Sequence record: PV660463
Strand: one strand, 5' to 3'
Length of the DNA: 64,000 bases
From: Escherichia phage LF82-41
The notes under the pieces are model-generated. The model was not told where the DNA came from. It worked only from the letters and a program-made list of their open reading frames with translations, and did no database searches. The position numbers and the translations under genes are program-made. This document shows, piece by piece, positions 10,321 to 56,210 of the stretch; position 1 is the first letter of the stretch; every line of letters starts with the position of its first letter.

Positions 10321-10730
10321 TACTTTTTCTTATGTTGGATATTCCAAGGCGGGTTGAACTTTTTGATAAAAAGCGGTTCTTCAAGGTCCATTGTTGCGAT
10401 GGTCATTGAACCAAGTTCGTTGGTGACTGAAAGGTCAAAACATTGGCGGGCCCAGAATTCAACCTTTTTGCCTTGCATTAAGGCATCCAAAATCATAAGT
10501 GATTTTCTTGAATCTGAAGTCTGGTCTTTTCGATTTATGGCTGTTCGATAATAGTTAATGCGTTTCTTTAAATTCTTGGTTTTACCAATATACACAAGTT
10601 CGTCATCTATAGCAATAGCGTATATGACATTTTTCTTATTAGGGACATCAACTGTTTTAATTGTTGCATCTTCTAATAGCTCCAATTCTGTATATTTAAT
10701 AAAGGAATATTCGGCGGCAATATCTTTCAT
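10320..10730 (-). CDS. denA: endonuclease II (GIY-YIG family)
   Basis: 136 aa as T4 DenA; GIY-YIG motif VIYAIAIDD...YIGKT; synteny rnlA-denA-nrdB. Confidence 0.85.
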   Translation of the reverse strand: MKDIAAEYSFIKYTELELLEDATIKTVDVPNKKNVIYAIAIDDELVYIGKTKNLKKRINYYRTAINRKDQTSDSRKSLMILDALMQGKKVEFWARQCFDLSVTNELGSMTIATMDLEEPLFIKKFNPPWNIQHKKK

Positions 10731-16032: not shown

Positions 16033-16270
16033 CTTTAAGCCCTTTAATAACTTTTTGGATTTGTGATTTTGATGAAACTAAATCACACTGGATTTGGCAA
16101 CCATCGGCAGGGTCAAATGTTGTAACGCAAACACGTGCTGGCATGGTGTATTCGTCAGACAAATCGAATGCATCAGCAATATATTTGGCTAAATCCGGGT
16201 GGTCTAAATTGACCGAAGTATAAACTTCATATCCGTCATCACCCTTGGAGTATTCAACAACAATAATCAT
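16025..16270 (-). CDS. hypothetical protein (81 aa, frd.x-like)
   Basis: ORF track. Confidence 0.45.
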   Translation of the reverse strand: MIIVVEYSKGDDGYEVYTSVNLDHPDLAKYIADAFDLSDEYTMPARVCVTTFDPADGCQIQCDLVSSKSQIQKVIKGLKDA

Positions 16271-16272
16271 TT

Positions 16273-16464
16273 TTATTTCCTCAGATATTTTTTGACCATA
16301 TAGTATTGGAATTCAAACATTCTTGAATCAATAACAAAAATTTGTTTTCTTGGGCATTCATTTAATCGTACAGCTGAACACCCAAACGCAAGTTCATGAT
16401 ATTGTTTCTTTTCTATTTCTGAAAGGAAAGTTCTAAGATAACGGAAAAATAGACAGTTAATCAT
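16273..16464 (-). CDS. hypothetical protein (63 aa)
   Basis: ORF track. Confidence 0.35.
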   Translation of the reverse strand: MINCLFFRYLRTFLSEIEKKQYHELAFGCSAVRLNECPRKQIFVIDSRMFEFQYYMVKKYLRK

Positions 16465-16466
16465 AA

Positions 16467-16778
16467 TTATTTCCTCAGATTTTTCTTAACAACTTTCCAA
16501 TCGGCTTTAAACGATTCAACATCAGAATGGTGAATCCAGAATCCTGCGCTTTCACCATCTTCGTAGAGTGGACATCCATCACATTCTTCATTCCATCCCA
16601 TTTCACGTAAAGCTTCTTCAGCTTGTTCAAGGAGTTCAGCATCTTTACCAACAACGTTGAAGTACCATTTACCTCTAACTTCAGAATCTTTGATGCTCTG
16701 TCGTTGCAATCTCATTTTATTCTCCTTCACTTTTGATTTGATAGGGCTACTATAACATAGCCCTATCTGATTGTACAC
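16467..16778 (-). CDS. hypothetical protein (103 aa)
   Basis: ORF track. Confidence 0.45.
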   Translation of the reverse strand: MYNQIGLCYSSPIKSKVKENKMRLQRQSIKDSEVRGKWYFNVVGKDAELLEQAEEALREMGWNEECDGCPLYEDGESAGFWIHHSDVESFKADWKVVKKNLRK

Positions 16779-17164
16779 TACTTTTTAAAAGTTTTTTGCA
16801 AAAGTTTGATGATTTCGTCGACGTTGGTTTCATCTACAATACAATGGATTTTTGTTACACCTAAAGTTATACCTTCGTTAGTAGATTGTGGCTTTTCTAA
16901 AGTTACCTCAGTAAAGTATTTGAATTCTTCAGAGTAAATCTCAAAATACGTCTCAAGTGGGCCACCAGCCATGTATTCAGTGCCGTCTTCCATAGTTACA
17001 CGTACCACACAGTCACCAGCACAATCATCACTTTCCATTTCATCTACAACAAAACTAGGTCCGTGCTTCTCTATTAAATTTAGCATCATTACATTGCAAC
17101 GGCACTCGTTAGCAAAGTCATCTTTAAATAAAGGGTTAATGATATAAGATTTTCCGATTTCCAT
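16778..17164 (-). CDS. hypothetical protein (128 aa)
   Basis: ORF track; early promoter at 17193-17222. Confidence 0.45.
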   Translation of the reverse strand: MEIGKSYIINPLFKDDFANECRCNVMMLNLIEKHGPSFVVDEMESDDCAGDCVVRVTMEDGTEYMAGGPLETYFEIYSEEFKYFTEVTLEKPQSTNEGITLGVTKIHCIVDETNVDEIIKLLQKTFKK

Positions 17165-17192
17165 TTTGATTTCCTCATGTTGTTGATAAGTC

Positions 17193-17222
17193 TATACTAA
17201 CACATCCAGGGAAGAAGTAAAC
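17193..17222 (-). promoter_or_regulatory. early-type promoter
   Basis: rc: GTTTAC-N17-TAGTAT. Confidence 0.5.
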
Positions 17223-17253
17223 AACTTTTTCAGCAATTTACAGATACTCAAAA

Positions 17254-17271
17254 GGGAGACCGAAGTCTCCC
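17254..17271 (-). terminator. UUCG-tetraloop hairpin after gene 32
   Basis: rc GGGAGAC-UUCG-GUCUCCC then UUUUGAG. Confidence 0.55.
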
Positions 17272-17277
17272 AATTTA

Positions 17278-18177
17278 TTATAGACCAGCTAACAGGTCAT
17301 CGAGGTCGCCATCGTCAGAAGACGAGGAACTCATGAAGTCATCTTCAGTTTTTGCAGAACTAAAGGCTTCCATGTCTTTATCAAAATCGTCAAGGTCGGA
17401 AGCAACTTTATCTGCAACAGAAGCTGCTGCGGCTGCTGCACCACCAAGAGCGGCAGTGCCAAGAACCTTAGCGAAAGATTCATTTAATTTTTCAAAGGAT
17501 TTGAACTGGTCTTTAGCCGTCAAAGTAGTAAGGTCTACCATCTGGTCATATAGTTCTTTCTGGAATGCTTCGTCATTAATACGAGGAATTTCAGATTGAC
17601 CCAAGAATTTAGATTCGTCGTAGTTGCTAAAACCAGAAACCTGCTTAGCTTTCAGAACGAAGTTGGCACCTTCAAACGGGCAAGTAACATCAACCGGAGT
17701 TTCACCCATTTCGGTATCAACTGCAATCATTGCATTGATTTTGTCCCAAATCTTTTTACCGAAACGATATTTAAATACTTTACCTTCATTATCTGGAGCT
17801 TGAGGGTCTTTAACAACCAGAATATTAGCCCAATAAGAAGTTTTACGTTTCAGTTGAGAATATTCAGTTTTGTTGGTATTGTACAGGTCATTTTTACTAA
17901 TGTACTGACATACAGGACAAGAGTCGTAATCACCATGTGTAGAAGAGCAATTTTCAATATACCATTTACCATTTTTCTTGAAACCGTGGTTAACAAGAAT
18001 TGCAAATGGTAGTGCGTCATCAGTTTTTGCTGGCAGGAAACGAATTACCGCTTGACCATTACCTGATGCATCTAGCTTCAGCTTCCATTCGCCTTTATCT
18101 TCTGAAGAGAAACCTTTGTTACCGTTCAGTTTAGCCATTTGAGCAGCGAGGTCAGCAGTAGATTTACGTTTAAACAT
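17278..18177 (-). CDS. 32: single-stranded DNA-binding protein gp32
   Basis: 299 aa; zinc site [16 protein letters not shown]; acidic Ser/Asp-rich C-terminus. Confidence 0.95.
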
Positions 18178-18256
18178 TATATTTACCTTTATTTAGATTA
18201 TTTAAATTATTTACAGTTGGTTACTACGACACTTATACCTCGTAGCTGGTATGATT

Positions 18257-18264
18257 TATTTATA
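18257..18264 (-). promoter_or_regulatory. late-promoter-like TATAAATA box upstream of gene 32, with MotA-box-like AGCTTTA nearby
   Basis: Forward tatttata = rc TATAAATA about 80 nt upstream of gene 32 start. Confidence 0.4.
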
Positions 18265-18293
18265 AAGTAATTTTAACACACAAGAAATAAAGC

Positions 18294-18947
18294 TTAATAC
18301 TTACATGATTTGATTGTTTCTATGAACAATTTCTTAGCAGCATTTCCATCGATTTGAAGTATTTTTCGATATGCCTTTAATTTGGTAGAATAATTTTGCC
18401 AGACTAAATTGTCGGTGAGTTCGTCGTGCTTATCTATAATATTCAAGAATGAATCCAACAACAAGAAGGTTTCAAATGAAATTATATTGCTTTGTAGCAA
18501 TTTAAATATGTAGCTCGACTGAACTTTATTATTATAATCAAATATCTCTTGAAGCGCACTAACTTCCACTTTCTTACTGAAATAGTAGATGTTACGTACA
18601 TCTTCAGCAAACGTCTCCTTGGCTTGTTTGAGTCGTCCAATATATTCCCTATAGAAAACTAATGCATCAGCGTCTGATATCTCACCAATCCATGCGTCTT
18701 GGTTAGCAACTAAGTTGCTTATGAATATCAAGGTGAGTTCCTTCAATTTATATTTCTCTGCTAGTTTTTCAAAGAAATATTTATCTCGGCGTTTTTGATA
18801 CGCATTATCCGAAACACGCATGCACCAGTTATATTTGATTACGTCATACCGACCACCAAAATGGTTTTTGCACATCAAGTATAGTTTGTATACCGATTTT
18901 CCATTAATATAACGTTCTCCATCAGGAGGCATACGTATTTTAATCAT
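18294..18947 (-). CDS. 59: helicase loader gp59
   Basis: 217 aa as T4 gp59; synteny 32-59-33. Confidence 0.88.
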   Translation of the reverse strand: MIKIRMPPDGERYINGKSVYKLYLMCKNHFGGRYDVIKYNWCMRVSDNAYQKRRDKYFFEKLAEKYKLKELTLIFISNLVANQDAWIGEISDADALVFYREYIGRLKQAKETFAEDVRNIYYFSKKVEVSALQEIFDYNNKVQSSYIFKLLQSNIISFETFLLLDSFLNIIDKHDELTDNLVWQNYSTKLKAYRKILQIDGNAAKKLFIETIKSCKY

Positions 18948-19282
18948 AATAAGAAATCTAACGTATTAGTTTTTTCACCACGAGCAACTGATGGGCGAAG
19001 CATGTTTTCGTCAATTGCTTCGCTTGTAATTTTTTCAACAATTCCTGTAGGAATAAATTTAGCAAATTGTGTTTCTGGAATAGAATTTTCTTCTAAGAAA
19101 GCAGTTGTTGCTTCTAAATAAGACATACCAAATTGTTCAACCATAGATTCGATAATGAATCCGTTTTCTTGCCGGTCAAGCAATTTAGCGATATCATCTT
19201 TATCATGTTTTACTGCTAATTCTTGTTCAGATAAACCGGCCTCATCAACCGGTTTAATATCACTTAGTGAAAACTGTGTCAT
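18944..19282 (-). CDS. 33: late transcription accessory protein gp33
   Basis: 112 aa as T4 gp33; synteny. Confidence 0.85.
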   Translation of the reverse strand: MTQFSLSDIKPVDEAGLSEQELAVKHDKDDIAKLLDRQENGFIIESMVEQFGMSYLEATTAFLEENSIPETQFAKFIPTGIVEKITSEAIDENMLRPSVARGEKTNTLDFLL

Positions 19283-24441: not shown

Positions 24442-25569
24442 ATGGAAAAATTTATGGCTAAGTTTGGACAAGGATACGTCCAAACGCCATTTTTATCGGA
24501 AAGCAATTCAGTACGATTTAAATTAAGCATAGCGGGCTCTTGTCCGCTATCAACATCTCCTGCTTATATTAAGTTCCAGGATAATCCACTTGGGTCCCAG
24601 GTTTTTTCTGTTGGATTAAACGTTCGTGTAATAAATCCTACAACAGGTGCAGTAGTTGAATCTAAGTCATATAATTTCTCTACTGAAAACGACGCCACGT
24701 CAAGTGCATTTGTTACTTTCATGGACACATACGCTTCAAATTTTATATTTGCTCTTGTTACTAACGCTAAAACAAACTTTCCGCCAGAAGTTCTTGCATG
24801 GTTTACCAAAGCTGGGAGTTCTGCTATTCCATTAGCTCAACAAGTTTTAAATATAGTGGACATTTCTTATTCGGCATTTTATATTTCTGGTAAGAATGCT
24901 ATAGCGCTAGAACATATTAAGTATAGTAATAAGAAAACTTCAACCGACTATAGTACACCACTTGATGTTGTGTACGACACGATCGATGATATTGGTGCGA
25001 CCGGCTTCCCTAGACGTACGTATGAATCGACAGACACATTTTTATCTGCTGTTGGAGGTACTAATAACGAAATTAAAAGGATGCCTACAACATCCATTAT
25101 TACACCTCTCGCTGGGTATAAATTGAAGCCTGGAGATTTCCTTTATATGAAATTCCAACTAATGGCTGATGCCGATTTGTTAGCACAAGGGACGACACGA
25201 CTTTCTATTCGTTTCTTTAAATCTCCTTCTACTTCACCTATTTCATTTAAGGATACAAACTTTGATGGGGCTGCAGGTGAATGGAAGATATATGAAGACT
25301 ACATAGAAATTCCTGCTGGTGCTGACGGGTTCACGATTTATTGTTATCGTACAGCTCCAGTCGGGCAAGGTGGATTAAGAAACGTTATATTCACTGAAGT
25401 ATCATGTAATGGAAGCGTTTCAAAACCTGCTGAGTTTGGTATAAATGGTATTCGTGTAAATTATGTTTCAGAATCTTTAAGTGCTCCAGACATAATGACA
25501 TTACCTACTCAATCTTCAACTGATACTGGTAAGGTATTTGGACAAGAATTTAAAGAAGCATCAGAATAA
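24442..25569 (+). CDS. 35: long tail fibre hinge connector gp35
   Basis: 375 aa; operon position. Confidence 0.9.
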   Translation: MEKFMAKFGQGYVQTPFLSESNSVRFKLSIAGSCPLSTSPAYIKFQDNPLGSQVFSVGLNVRVINPTTGAVVESKSYNFSTENDATSSAFVTFMDTYASNFIFALVTNAKTNFPPEVLAWFTKAGSSAIPLAQQVLNIVDISYSAFYISGKNAIALEHIKYSNKKTSTDYSTPLDVVYDTIDDIGATGFPRRTYESTDTFLSAVGGTNNEIKRMPTTSIITPLAGYKLKPGDFLYMKFQLMADADLLAQGTTRLSIRFFKSPSTSPISFKDTNFDGAAGEWKIYEDYIEIPAGADGFTIYCYRTAPVGQGGLRNVIFTEVSCNGSVSKPAEFGINGIRVNYVSESLSAPDIMTLPTQSSTDTGKVFGQEFKEASE

Positions 25570-29543: not shown

Positions 29544-30095
29544 ATGAAAATTTACCACTACTATTTTGACACTAAAGAATTTTATAAAGAAGAAACATAT
29601 AAACCTGTTAAAGGCGTTGGACTCCCGGCGCATTCTACAACTAAAAAACCACTTGATCCTAAAGAAGGATATGCGATTGTTTTTGACGAACTCATTCAAG
29701 ATTGGATTTATGAAGAAGATCATCGCGGTAAACTAGCTTGGACCTTCGATAAACAACCCGTTAAAATTGATAGTATAGGAAGCTTACAGGGTGCAACATT
29801 TGATGAGCCTGGCGAGTTTGATCTTTGGATAGATGGCGGCTGGAAAGAGGATGAGTGTTATAAACGTTTGACTCTTAGAAATAGAAAACTTGATCAACTT
29901 TTTAAAGAGTACCAAGTCTTGTCTAATTTGGTTGAAGCTTCTGTTGCAAATAAAGACGAGAAATTCTATTACCAGAATCTTAAACGTTTCTTTGCTCTTT
30001 ATGAAAAGCATGAGCATTTAGGTGGCGAATTCCCGGCATGGCCAGAAAAAGAACGAAAATCATTTTTTAAAAGAGTGATAAATATCTTCAGATAA
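29544..30095 (+). CDS. 38: tail-fibre assembly chaperone gp38 (T4-type, not adhesin-type)
   Basis: 183 aa; N-terminus MKIYHYYFDTKEFYKEE matches T4 gp38 as recalled. Confidence 0.92.
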   Translation: MKIYHYYFDTKEFYKEETYKPVKGVGLPAHSTTKKPLDPKEGYAIVFDELIQDWIYEEDHRGKLAWTFDKQPVKIDSIGSLQGATFDEPGEFDLWIDGGWKEDECYKRLTLRNRKLDQLFKEYQVLSNLVEASVANKDEKFYYQNLKRFFALYEKHEHLGGEFPAWPEKERKSFFKRVINIFR

Positions 30096-30105
30096 AGGAG
30101 GTATT

Positions 30106-30765
30106 ATGGCAACACCAAAAGTGTCATTTTCGCCTAGTGATATTCTATTTGGGTTGCTAGATCGTATTTTCAAAGATAACGCTACTGGAAAGGTTTTAAT
30201 GTCCCGAGTAGCGGTAATTATTCTTTTGTTCCTAATGGCACTAATATGGTACAAAGGAAGTATTTTGCTGGATTATTATGTAAGATCTAAGTATGATACT
30301 TATACTGAAATAATCCAAAAAGAACGAGCTTTACGTTTTGAATCTGCGGCTCTAGAACAACTGCAAATAGTTCATATCTCTTCCGGTGCAGATTTTAGTG
30401 CTGTGTATTCTTTCAGACCTAAAAACTTAAATTATTTCGTCGACCTTATAGCTTATGAAGGCAAACTGCCTAGCACAATTTCTGAAAAGTCCCTTGGTGG
30501 ATTCCCAGTAGATAAAACGGCCAATGAATATATAATTCATTTAAGTGGCCGTCATTTCTCGTCTAAATCAGAATTTGCATTTTTGCCTACAAAATCTAAG
30601 ACTGCCGAACTTTCTTATATGTATAGTTGTCCATACTTTAATTTGGATAACATCTACGCTGGAACTGTGACGATGTATTGGTATAAGGGGAGTAATATAC
30701 TTGAGGAAGATCGCTTAGCGGCTATATGCAACCAAGCGGTCCGAATACTAGGAAGGGCTAAATAA
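30106..30765 (+). CDS. t: holin
   Basis: 219 aa; single N-terminal TMD; high similarity to recalled T4 T. Confidence 0.95.
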   Translation: MATPKVSFSPSDILFGLLDRIFKDNATGKVLMSRVAVIILLFLMALIWYKGSILLDYYVRSKYDTYTEIIQKERALRFESAALEQLQIVHISSGADFSAVYSFRPKNLNYFVDLIAYEGKLPSTISEKSLGGFPVDKTANEYIIHLSGRHFSSKSEFAFLPTKSKTAELSYMYSCPYFNLDNIYAGTVTMYWYKGSNILEEDRLAAICNQAVRILGRAK

Positions 30766-53996: not shown

Positions 53997-54317
53997 TTAA
54001 CTCCTTTGTTGTTTAATTACAGGTGTATTTATAATGAATTTCTTCGGGACAATAAAATATCCGAATTTAGCTAATATAACAACATCACCGTTAATTATTA
54101 CCGGAGAATAATCATCTGGAGTATTAAATTTCCAGTGGAGTCTAGTATTATATCCATCAGAGCCGAATGCTTTATTAGCCGGTCTCCCGGCTTTTTGCCA
54201 TGCATAAAAATCAAGTTTCATTTGCAACCCAATCAACCATATGTAGATGGTCTGATAATTGACTAACATGCTGAAGCTGATTAGACAGGAGCTTACAAAT
54301 AAGCTCACTGTTATCAT
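53997..54317 (-). CDS. hypothetical protein (106 aa)
   Basis: ORF track; contains the soc late promoter near its 3' end. Confidence 0.4.
   Translation of the reverse strand: MITVSLFVSSCLISFSMLVNYQTIYIWLIGLQMKLDFYAWQKAGRPANKAFGSDGYNTRLHWKFNTPDDYSPVIINGDVVILAKFGYFIVPKKFIINTPVIKQQRS
54026..54033 (-). promoter_or_regulatory. late promoter (TATAAATA) for soc
   Basis: Forward tatttata = rc TATAAATA, 32 nt upstream of soc ATG, inside the preceding ORF. Confidence 0.65.
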
Positions 54318-54383
54318 TTTTAAATAGCTGGTTAATACGTTTCTTGTGGGCTTTCTTAAGCTGGCGTTTATTTAAACGAGCCA

Positions 54384-54905
54384 TTAATAACCTCGGTCTT
54401 GACGTGCGAAGTTTTCAGCATTTTTCAGGTAATACAGTTTAAAGATTTCTTCTGCAGTAAGTCCAAGGCCTTGGAACATATTCAGAACAAAGTGGAGGAT
54501 ATCAATCATCTCAAATTTAATTTCAAGCTGGTCTTCAGGAGACAGTTCATCGATACGACGATTTCGATATTCAGCATGGTGTGCTTTCCATGGCTTCCAT
54601 ACAGAGCTAGCGGCTTTTTCACCGTTGGACATACCACCAAGTGAAGTCAGCAGTTCACGGAATTCATCATCAATATAATCTTTCTGATTACGCAGCCAAT
54701 CAACAACATCACCGGCAGTAGCCAATTCATCAGGATGTTTGTTATGTTCAGGCTTGTCATTTGCCAGACGAACCTGTAAAGATTTCTGCATATCAAGCAT
54801 TACCTGCAGTGGGTCTTTATCTTCGTGAATCAGAGCATTAAAATAAGCTTCTTCTGCTTTATCAACACCAGAAATAAGTTGTGAACATTCGTTAAAGTGT
54901 GCCAT
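54384..54905 (-). CDS. 56: dCTPase/dUTPase gp56 (MazG-like)
   Basis: Start set to ATG at 54905 (MAHFNEC..., RBS AAGGAAAAATA) as in T4 gp56. Confidence 0.85.
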   Translation of the reverse strand: MAHFNECSQLISGVDKAEEAYFNALIHEDKDPLQVMLDMQKSLQVRLANDKPEHNKHPDELATAGDVVDWLRNQKDYIDDEFRELLTSLGGMSNGEKAASSVWKPWKAHHAEYRNRRIDELSPEDQLEIKFEMIDILHFVLNMFQGLGLTAEEIFKLYYLKNAENFARQDRGY

Positions 54906-54993
54906 TATTTTTCCTTTCAATTCAGTATAAGAGAGTTAATTCTAACATTAATTTTATAAAGCGTAATAAATAATAGGTAACTAAGGAGATATT

Positions 54994-55191
54994 ATGTTTA
55001 AACTTCCATCGTTAATCAACGCTATTAAAGGCAATAAAAAGAAAACTGCTATCGCTGCAATAGTTGTAGGTGGCATTATTTCATGGAACTTCGGGATTGC
55101 ACCATTGTTAGTTGCTAATGGTATTATAGTTCCTTCTGTTCCATTGGATACTGTAGTTGATTTGGCCTTTGCTATTATAGGGCTTGTTTAA
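54994..55191 (+). CDS. small hydrophobic protein (65 aa) on the opposite strand
   Basis: Strong SD AAGGAG 7 nt upstream of ATG; two hydrophobic segments; converges on gene 61. Confidence 0.45.
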   Translation: MFKLPSLINAIKGNKKKTAIAAIVVGGIISWNFGIAPLLVANGIIVPSVPLDTVVDLAFAIIGLV

Positions 55192-56210
55192 ATCTTCGAA
55201 TAACGAGATAATCTCATTTTAGCATGCAACCCACTTGAAATATTCTGTTTCATATATTCTAAAATTTCTTGTGGTGTTGCATTTTCTTTCATTACCATAT
55301 CATTCACATCCTTTGATCTCCATGGACTTCGGTCCCAGAACATGACACGTTCGCCTGCATCAACTAATCGCTTCATGCGAGCTATAGTATCCGGATGCCT
55401 AGGTTCATTATCCATTACCCATACCCGACGTTCTTTAAATGGTACCACATCTAAATCTATTGAGCCGCCTGTAATAGCGATTGCATTGGGTATGAATAAA
55501 CTATCAATAGGGCCTTCCATTACCCAGACGTCCCCTTCCTTAACACGTTCAACACCATAAATTTTTGTTGCAGACTCAAACGCTTTAATAGTGATATATT
55601 TCTGAGGAGCATCTTTACGAAGTGCACGTCCTTGGAATGACTCGGCCTTCCCATCTTTATTAAAAATAGGAATCACTAAACGCGGTTCAGGAATCTCTTT
55701 CTTATACGTACCAGGTTGAATCTTGTTGACCAATTTAGGCCATTCTAATGTGAACCATAATCTGTTCCATGATTCTTTAGGAATACACCGAGACTTAACA
55801 TATTTCACAATAGGATGCTCTTCAGGCAGCTTGTCCAGACGAGAACAAGACGGCAAAGAATTTATAGTCTTTTTCTCTGGGGCAGGCTTAGCTTCAGGAA
55901 CCTTTTCAATCTTTGGTTCCATTCTAGCTTTTTCTTTACGAACTTCCATTAGATATTCGCGATAAAGCTCTTCATCATACTCTTTTAAGTATCCGGAAAT
56001 TGTATTATGATATTGACAGTTATAGCAATGCACATTACCTGGAGTACCGCCATAATACCATCCACGAGCTTTCATTGCATCTGTCTGGGAGTCGCCACAA
56101 ACTGGACATCGAAATGTTAATTTAAATGTGCTTGAATTATTGATTTGTCTAAAACGAGGTAGGTGAGAAAACGCACGATAAGCAAATTCATTATCTATCC
56201 ATTCAGCCAT
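55188..56210 (-). CDS. 61: DNA primase gp61
   Basis: 340 aa; N-terminal zinc ribbon CPVCGDS...CYNCQYH; Toprim-type core. Confidence 0.93.
   Translation of the reverse strand: MAEWIDNEFAYRAFSHLPRFRQINNSSTFKLTFRCPVCGDSQTDAMKARGWYYGGTPGNVHCYNCQYHNTISGYLKEYDEELYREYLMEVRKEKARMEPKIEKVPEAKPAPEKKTINSLPSCSRLDKLPEEHPIVKYVKSRCIPKESWNRLWFTLEWPKLVNKIQPGTYKKEIPEPRLVIPIFNKDGKAESFQGRALRKDAPQKYITIKAFESATKIYGVERVKEGDVWVMEGPIDSLFIPNAIAITGGSIDLDVVPFKERRVWVMDNEPRHPDTIARMKRLVDAGERVMFWDRSPWRSKDVNDMVMKENATPQEILEYMKQNISSGLHAKMRLSRYSKI

Follow-up and report, generated by a model that had tools for sequence, protein, structure and literature searches.

A small open reading frame between genes 56 and 61 of an RB69-like phage is very probably a conserved T-even gene and not a substitute for dam

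Introduction

In the T4 reference record (NC_000866), gene 56 (16270–16785), dam (16846–17625) and gene 61 (17935–18963) follow one another, and the 309-nt gap between dam and gene 61 is unannotated. T4 Dam (MethyltransfD12) is a GATC N6-adenine methyltransferase. RB69 carries the open reading frame (ORF) RB69ORF029w beside gene 61. It was annotated in 2003 as a 'hypothetical protein', and a single transmembrane (TM) segment at residues 21–41 was predicted for its product (Nolan et al. 2006). The Mosigviruses, to which RB69-like phages belong, arabinosylate cytosine rather than glucosylating hmC (PMC6024577, PMC13390438). Published annotations of RB69-type genomes already imply that dam is absent from them.

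Early and middle transcription of T4 has a single polarity (PMC2988020). The T4 late promoter is TATAAATA at positions −13 to −6; among 50 listed late sites, 32 are perfect and nine carry A at −13 (PMC2988020). A(−13) is the commonest natural late-promoter variant (PMC2988020; PMC1524935), and the T at −13 is poorly conserved in RB69 and other relatives (PMC1524935).

Here we analysed 64,000 nt of Escherichia phage LF82-41 (PV660463), hereafter the window. An initial annotation, made from the sequence alone, had proposed that a small hydrophobic ORF takes the place of dam between genes 56 and 61, and that the loss of dam together with different sugar-modification genes points to a distinct DNA-modification strategy. 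Our comparisons make it very probable that the ORF is a genuine conserved T-even gene, the ortholog of RB69ORF029w, and not a dam substitute.

Organization of the locus

The window belongs to an RB69-like T-even phage of the genus Mosigvirus. Across 25 kb, the closest genome was that of Escherichia phage LH01 (97.6% identical). The 2-kb region surrounding the interval matched 652 phage records, with LH01 at the top (97.8% identity) and RB69 at 96.3%. For genome-wide searches, the window was combined with positions 25,000–132,500 of LH01 into a proxy genome; the overlaps at the window ends were 96–98% identical. The following features were assigned at the locus:

54384..54905, minus strand: gene 56, dCTPase/dUTPase, 173 aa (phrog_173, E = 2.9e-45; RB69 and T4 annotation)
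54939..54966, minus strand: middle-type promoter of gene 56 (MotA box TTACGCTTTA at 54966-54957, 12-nt spacer, −10 element TAGAAT at 54944-54939)
54965..54972, plus strand: AATAAATA, putative late-promoter-like element of the T4 type (TATAAATA carrying A at −13), 21 nt 5′ of the ATG of the small ORF
54983..54988, plus strand: Shine-Dalgarno sequence AAGGAG of the small ORF, identified from the sequence, 5 nt 5′ of the ATG
54994..55191, plus strand: small ORF, 65-aa coding sequence, stop included (ORF listing; phrog_2024; annotation of RB69 and relatives)
55188..56210, minus strand: gene 61, DNA primase, 340 aa (phrog_47, E = 5.5e-102; annotation of relatives)

On the minus strand, gene 56 begins with the ATG at 54905; the ORF list places its start at a TTG (54920), which is a mechanical extension. 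The interval between genes 56 and 61 measured 282 nt (54906-55187) and contained no Dam-like sequence, in agreement with the initial annotation, which had described an interval of about 280 nt without dam. The 65-aa opposite-strand ORF with its strong Shine-Dalgarno sequence was likewise found as described, with an ATG at 54994 and a TAA ending at 55191. The reported 4-nt overlap with the primase stop was also confirmed: the TTAA at 55188-55191 is common to the small ORF and the primase gene and reads TAA on both strands. Besides the gene 56 promoter, the minus strand of the interval carries the gene 56 ribosome-binding site. Further left of gene 56, PHROG scans identified soc and two small soc-adjacent ORFs.

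Family and distribution of the small ORF

The product of the small ORF matched phrog_2024 end to end (E = 1.4e-26, residues 1–65 on profile positions 1–65 of 65). It was 97% identical to RB69ORF029w, whose position, strand and 4-nt overlap with gene 61 were all as in the window, and 100% identical to a protein of phage JS09. The protein is placed in pVOG VOG1982 in the record of phage teqskov, and the records of relatives label it hypothetical or 'putative transmembrane protein'. The ORF is already known, being catalogued as RB69ORF029w, PHROG 2024 and VOG1982. Nothing material differs between these entries and the window, which represents another Mosigvirus isolate.

When the 65-aa product was searched with tblastn, it was found in 692 phage records, in 685 of them at a coverage of at least 80%. 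The Mosigvirus type (at least 60% identity) accounted for about 157 records; a second type, roughly 50% identical, was present in about 535 records of Tequatrovirus and related genera. At 90% identity the sequences fell into 76 clusters, every one of them from T4-like contigs of about 170 kb. When 1.84 billion representative proteins were searched exhaustively with the profile, only 15 clusters reached E ≤ 0.001, and the family is a narrow one as judged by these searches. A scan of bacterial genomes with a single query (P0115) gave no match. The ORF was single-copy in the proxy genome.

T4 encodes an ortholog of 66 codons (NC_000866, 17738-17938, plus strand) in the gap between dam and gene 61. 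Its product is 52% identical to the window protein. The T4 ORF has the Shine-Dalgarno sequence AAGGAGG and the same 4-nt TTAA overlap with the gene 61 stop, and 21 nt separate its ATG from GATAAATA, the same distance as from AATAAATA in the window. The upstream neighbour differs, being dam with the early promoter P(E)17.40 in T4 and gene 56 with its middle promoter in the window. The ortholog is missing from the RefSeq annotation NC_000866. In a second T4 record (OZ209057) it is called by Pyrodigal as a hypothetical protein of PHROG 2024. The only frameshifted copies were those in T4_ev240 (−1 in an A-run) and in the indel-ridden record T4_583L. These were dropped as evidence of dispensability, as they are most likely sequencing or assembly artefacts.

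The layout was inspected in the window, RB69, T4, CJ20, SEA1, UTI-E2, teqskov and six metagenomic T4-like contigs. In every T4-like lineage opened, the small ORF was located on the plus strand between genes 56 and 61. The primase gene was its neighbour in Mosigvirus, Tequatrovirus, Gaprivervirus, Salmonella phage SEA1 and more distant T4-like contigs. The 4-nt TTAA overlap with gene 61 recurred in T4, UTI-E2, teqskov, ESCO47, L028 and L030, and gaps of 118, 18 and 9 nt separated the two genes in CJ20, L011 and L014, respectively. Across the genomes compared, the ORF is usually convergent with the primase gene and has the TTAA stop in common with it. ESCO47 and the metagenomic relative L011 carried a diverged paralog (type B, MGTVFYQIW...) in tandem upstream of the ORF (type A), with an 8-nt overlap at the start of type A. 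Type B was the sole paralog in SEA1.

Evidence for coding

At about 36% GC, the chance of an open frame of 65 codons was estimated at approximately 1% per frame, which is only mildly unlikely. The frame nevertheless exceeds chance expectation because it is conserved: in 685 of the 692 records, at least 80% of it is open. We compared the ORF with its orthologs at two evolutionary distances. Against the divergent Mosigvirus ESCO47, the DNA divergence was 25%, the differences at the three codon positions were 14/3/31 and dN/dS was 0.10. Against T4, synonymous sites were saturated, dN was 0.45 and dN/dS was about 0.11. Protein similarity was kept at 43–52% identity despite this saturation. A GGAG-type Shine-Dalgarno sequence preceded the ORF in all orthologs examined. 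These patterns of substitution identify the small ORF as a coding gene under purifying selection.

An untranslated frame could also be conserved, as part of the primase mRNA (a 3′ UTR or processing region) or as a divergent promoter region. The ORF is short, it is located in AT-rich DNA where spurious ORFs are abundant, and the reference annotation of T4 lacks it. Proteomic or ribosome-profiling support for it was not found in the literature searched: this search returned no paper naming RB69ORF029w, no T4 start-site or ribosome-profiling study and no expression data for the ORF in any phage. Such a reading is nevertheless extremely improbable. It does not account for substitutions that are concentrated at third positions, for a protein sequence retained where synonymous sites are saturated, for a frame intact in nearly all records or for a strong Shine-Dalgarno sequence in every lineage. 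The diverged tandem paralog also retains the family motifs. The region had no match in Rfam and its RNA structure was not unusual (folding z = −0.29), results that argue against untranslated conservation and led us to reject a structured RNA or sRNA in the interval.

Status of dam

The genome-wide search for a dam homolog or DPPY motif suggested with the initial annotation was run on the proxy genome and revealed no Dam homolog. With T4 Dam as the tblastn query, the best E value was 0.49 in the 64-kb window, and values were 1.3 or worse in the proxy genome; neither constitutes a homolog. In proxy frames of at least 120 codons, the motif (D/N/S)PP(Y/F/W) occurred once only, as an NPPW at the extreme end of a frame of 159 codons (window position 10355, minus strand). 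No methyltransferase is annotated in LH01 between 25 and 132.5 kb. Genome-wide absence of dam refers to a 97.6%-identical proxy, which stood in for the 105 kb of this phage outside the window.

The lack of dam in the interval as well as the proxy genome, and the arabinosylation of cytosine in Mosigviruses, which do not glucosylate hmC (PMC6024577, PMC13390438), would be compatible with the proposal that the small ORF replaces a lost dam and marks a distinct DNA-modification strategy. The comparison with other genomes renders this proposal barely credible. The ORF is not a substitute for dam, because the T4 ortholog adjoins dam: T4 has both genes, side by side. T4-type Dam (at least 90% identity) was present in only about 182 records, compared with the 692 records containing the small ORF and the approximately 535 with its Tequatrovirus type. 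In T4 and about one third of Tequatrovirus records, dam sits between gene 56 and the small ORF. The dam-less Tequatroviruses UTI-E2 and teqskov, which are of the glucosyl-hmC type, showed a 56-ORF-61 layout identical to that of the window. Most glucosylating Tequatroviruses also lack dam, so its absence is not peculiar to the arabinosylating Mosigviruses, and the initial claim that dam loss and the sugar genes together point to a distinct modification strategy is not supported. The small ORF protein, moreover, has no methyltransferase or nucleic-acid-related feature. It has nothing in common with T4 Dam, which is merely the gene expected at this map position.

No dam was present between gene 56 and the ORF in Gaprivervirus CJ20, in ESCO47, in SEA1 or in three metagenomic contigs (including L011 and L014). 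In the distant members L020, L028 and L030, other small genes intervene in place of dam. Given the record counts and the shared layout of the dam-less Tequatroviruses, dam looks accessory. These sequences are read most simply with 56-ORF(+)-61 as the common arrangement and the dam cassette as an accessory insertion in a T4 subgroup. The framing of the initial annotation, in which dam was replaced within a new modification strategy, was wrong, and the finding as then interpreted was mistaken. In the T-even group dam is a patchy accessory cassette, and its absence should not be taken as a lineage-specific loss.

GATC sites were depleted in both types of genome, with observed/expected ratios of 0.35 in T4 and 0.21–0.26 in Mosigvirus. 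This common depletion is a further argument against a modification strategy tied to the lack of dam. We also rejected GATC avoidance as a dam-less strategy, since the dam-plus T4 is strongly depleted too.

Predicted structure and topology of the protein

The AlphaFold2 model, based on a 71-sequence alignment, had a pLDDT of 82.6 and consisted of helices at residues 4–11, 15–41 (27 residues) and 51–64 (14 residues), with a proline-rich loop at residues 42–50. The initial annotation had recognized two hydrophobic segments. The first corresponds to one full TM helix (15–41) in the model, and the second is reduced to the short C-terminal helix. The net charge was +5 in the N-terminal 18 residues and −2 in the C-terminal part, which fits an N-in/C-out orientation. 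The product is predicted to be a single-pass inner-membrane protein with this topology. Its lysine-rich N-terminus would be cytoplasmic, the TM helix would bear W31-N32, and the conserved loop-plus-helix 'HG..(L/V)P.V.L(D/E)' would face the periplasm.

Among the 71 sequences, W31 and N32 were invariant, and K12, G13, P37, G43, P47, L51, D56 and G63 were conserved in at least 90%. The window protein contains the family core W-N-[FYL]-x3-P ... [HNQ]-[GA]-x2-[LV]-P-x-[VI]-x-[LM]-[DE]. The most conserved part, also in distant members, comprised the periplasm-proximal half of the TM helix and the loop (W-N-F...P...H-G..(L/V)-P.V.L-(D/E)). Conservation of this kind hints at a specific interaction at the outer face of the inner membrane.

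Promoters and transcription

The middle promoter of gene 56 is a strong one; it corresponds to Pm:16038 of RB69 (score 21.6; Nolan et al. 2006) and is annotated as a middle promoter in SA79RD. A MotA box and TATAAT were found upstream of gene 56 in T4, UTI-E2, CJ20 and SEA1. According to the NC_000866 annotation, the transcript from the equivalent T4 promoter is said to prime the replication origin oriA. In the window, the gene 56 promoter is back-to-back with the late-promoter-like element of the small ORF.

The motif NATAAATA occurred at only 14 sites on both strands of the 64-kb window, and some of these precede gp34, gp36, soc and holin t. In the case of holin t (30106-30765; Pfam Phage_holin_T, E = 2.8e-92), GATAAATA was located 21 nt from the ATG. 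The same motif was present 15–34 nt upstream of the ATG of the small ORF in 9 of 11 lineages. It read GATAAATA in T4, AATAAATA in UTI-E2 and teqskov, and CATAAATA in CJ20. In ESCO47 and L011, CATAAATA preceded the first of the two paralogs, and the motif was also found in L013, L020 and L023. Exact ATAAATA was missing in two lineages, SEA1 having ATTAAATA and L014 having none. In the lineages compared, the first base of the motif was A, G or C and never the consensus T. No late promoter is predicted here among the 31 RB69 late-promoter predictions of Nolan et al. (2006).

The position of the motif relative to the opposite-strand promoter varied. It lay outside the MotA box in the window, within the spacer that separates the MotA box from the −10 element in UTI-E2, directly against the MotA box in CJ20 and beside the early promoter of dam in T4. 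Its spacing to the small ORF was kept, which suggests that the motif serves this ORF.

The early genes in the window are all on the minus strand, which is the early/middle polarity here, and the small ORF shares the plus strand with gp34, gp36 and holin t. No plus-strand sigma-70-like site was found upstream of the small ORF. Because of the single early/middle polarity and the lack of such a site, late expression is the best inference for the ORF. The initial suggestion of a possibly late-expressed membrane protein is supported, in that the ORF is a genuine gene for a predicted small membrane protein, is very probably expressed late and has a putative late motif that is conserved in most lineages. 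In the mechanism we propose, gp55-RNA polymerase would transcribe the small ORF late from AATAAATA at 54965-54972, and the mRNA would have a 5′ UTR of roughly 15 nt carrying AAGGAG.

No terminator-like site was found between gene 61, the small ORF and gene 56. The mRNA of the ORF would consequently have to extend in antisense orientation into the 3′ end of the gene 61 mRNA, and early/middle transcripts reading from gene 61 into gene 56 would be antisense to the small ORF. Opposite timing would keep the two kinds of transcript apart.

This arrangement led us to consider that the main function might lie at the RNA level, with a late transcript from NATAAATA running antisense into gene 61 to shut off primase and the peptide being secondary. 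Because of the TTAA stop overlap in most lineages, both mRNAs must overlap, no terminator-like site follows the ORF, and T4 is known to have sites where the two strands are transcribed at separate times (PMC2988020). Even so, we regard such a function as quite improbable. Purifying selection acts on the amino-acid sequence, and the invariant W31-N32 and near-invariant P37, G43 and P47 show that the protein is selected; the ORF and the primase gene do not overlap in three lineages (CJ20, L011 and L014). An RNA-level role and a protein function are compatible and could coexist.

Possible functions

The analysis points to a conserved, probably late small membrane-protein gene under purifying selection that is present in hundreds of T-even genomes and absent from RefSeq T4. 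Sequence searches of Pfam, NCBIfam, PADLOC and PDB with the small ORF protein returned no significant match. Foldseek against the BFVD viral models retrieved family members only; a helical protein of only 65 aa offers too little structure for inference from its fold. One of eight family members matched Ldr_toxin, at E = 0.1 and below significance.

Several features led us to consider a holin- or antiholin-like, or a type-I-toxin-like, membrane-permeabilising peptide with a direct part in host lysis. The protein is of small size and probably made late, and its single TM helix contains a polar Asn. ESCO47 and L011 have translationally coupled tandem paralogs, and the early read-through transcripts would be antisense to the small ORF; the weak Ldr_toxin match also fits. 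One UniProt family member is automatically named 'Holin'. This is one automated label among hundreds of entries named 'hypothetical protein', and the small ORF protein belonged neither to a curated holin family nor to a known type I toxin family. The T-even lysis set is already complete, with holin T encoded in the window. T-even phages also have RI, RIII, endolysin and spanins. The neighbours of the ORF are the dCTPase and primase genes and not a lysis cassette, and in no T4-like genome was it beside the endolysin gene. Outside the T4-like phages, two distant PHROG 2024 members were found, one near a T4-type lysozyme (L022) and one after a tail-tip gene beside an integrase (L029); no recognisable lysis cassette was present among the ORFs surrounding either. 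On balance, a direct part in lysis is unlikely.

Imm, Sp and the RI antiholin are small T4 proteins that control envelope and lysis. They and the small holins of other phages, which have one or two TM segments, are similar to the small ORF protein in size, in having a membrane anchor and in having a short periplasmic part. This is a resemblance only, as no sequence or profile similarity was detected between any of them and the small ORF protein. The genes for Imm and Sp are early and belong to the opposite strand, whereas the small ORF is on the late strand and outside any lysis cassette. We tentatively suggest that this small protein could act late to modulate a process at the envelope, for example lysis timing, lysis inhibition or membrane integrity.

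A more specific reading, which we hold to be rather unlikely, is that the ORF encodes a late envelope/lysis factor that has gone unrecognised in T4 and may be coupled to antisense control of primase. If this were true, the late envelope and lysis biology of T4 (lysis timing, lysis inhibition, late exclusion) would gain an undiscovered player, and the obligatory antisense overlap could couple primase shut-off to the early-to-late switch. The 'Emp' peptide of Mosigvirus AV110 was examined as a lead and rejected, as it is Gp94, an unrelated 109-aa early protein encoded next to motA.

Conservation of the small ORF and its absence from the T4 annotation

The 309-nt gap between dam and gene 61 contains no feature in the T4 RefSeq record NC_000866.4. 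An ortholog of RB69ORF029w and of the 65-aa small ORF of the window was found there:

NC_000866.4 17738-17938 (L004 3739-3939), plus strand: T4 ORF of 66 codons, RB69ORF029w ortholog, with AAGGAGG and GATAAATA upstream

The T4 reference annotation is therefore without a conserved gene. The stops of the small ORF and of the gene converging on it, mostly that of the primase, overlapped in a TTAA in the window (55188-55191), in T4 (L004 3936-3939) and in five further loci (L023, L024, L025, L028 and L030). This overlap was found again across lineages whose small-ORF proteins were just 25-50% identical. At locus L020, the small ORF overlapped an inserted 124-aa ORF instead of the primase gene, and no overlap was present in CJ20, L011 and L014, where a gap of 9-118 nt separated the genes.

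Only two disrupted copies of the small ORF were seen. The copy in T4_ev240 (L026 2483-2608) carried a -1 frameshift within an A-run, and in T4_583L (L027) many deletions of 2-4 nt were strewn over dam and the small ORF. These disruptions are probably artefacts of sequencing or assembly, or the product of deliberate mutagenesis, rather than natural losses.

Paralogous subtypes and distant members of PHROG 2024

PHROG 2024, the family of the small ORF, comprised two paralogous subtypes. Both occurred in tandem in phage ESCO47 (L008 1305-1698) and in a metagenomic relative (L011 3001-3394), with an 8-nt overlap, which suggests that the two copies are translationally coupled. NATAAATA was located upstream of the first tandem copy only. 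SEA1 encoded the second subtype, type B, alone (L009 3001-3225; MGSIFYQIW...).

Outside the T4-like phages, the family had two genuine, distant members (L022 3501-3713 and L029 4001-4210; E about 6e-11). The former occupied the margin of a phage-like element, beside bacterial genes, with a T4-type lysozyme 1.5 kb away. The latter belonged to a siphophage-like prophage, with a tail-tip gene on one side and a serine recombinase on the other. Inspection of both neighbourhoods revealed no clear lysis cassette.

Promoters and late-type motifs

54939-54966, minus strand: gene 56 middle promoter, MotA box and TAGAAT
30077-30765 including the upstream motif, plus strand: gene t, encoding a 219-aa holin (Pfam Phage_holin_T, E = 2.8e-92)

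The gene 56 middle promoter was arranged back-to-back with the putative late-promoter-like element that precedes the small ORF (54965-54972, plus strand), the two overlapping by 2 nt. The promoter at the equivalent place in T4 yields a transcript to which the annotation assigns the role of primer for the replication origin oriA; the gene 56-61 interval may therefore hold the oriA-equivalent promoter of the window phage. In the window, GATAAATA was positioned 21 nt upstream of the holin t ATG in place of the canonical TATAAATA, so this phage does have non-T first positions ahead of a genuine late gene.

GATC depletion and search for a methyltransferase motif

No other 4-mer palindrome came close to GATC in depletion, either in the window or in phage LH01 (L016-L018) and T4 (76000-125999, L019). 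The window contained 46 GATC sites where 210 were expected (observed/expected 0.22), and the proxy genome, composed of the window and the rest of LH01, contained 117 where 553 were expected (0.21). T4, which encodes Dam, was depleted too, with a ratio of 0.35 in the L019 segment versus 0.26 in the LH01 segment syntenic with it. In several loci of 5-6 kb from dam-less relatives (CJ20, SEA1 and L011), GATC was entirely absent.

The sole (D/N/S)PP(Y/F/W) match within a long frame of the proxy genome was an NPPW tetrapeptide at window 10355 (minus strand); it lies in an open frame of 159 codons, right at the C-terminus. This frame showed no similarity to T4 Dam, and the motif is probably a chance occurrence.

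The soc-gene 56 junction

53997-54384, minus strand: two small ORFs between soc and gene 56 (phrog_5782 and phrog_5773)

At this junction T4 carries the homing endonuclease gene segF, whereas the window phage carries a soc.2-like ORF of 57 aa, assigned to phrog_5782 ('virion structural protein'), together with a frame of 106 aa, residues 33-101 of which matched phrog_5773. The junction is a further indel-prone one of the same region.
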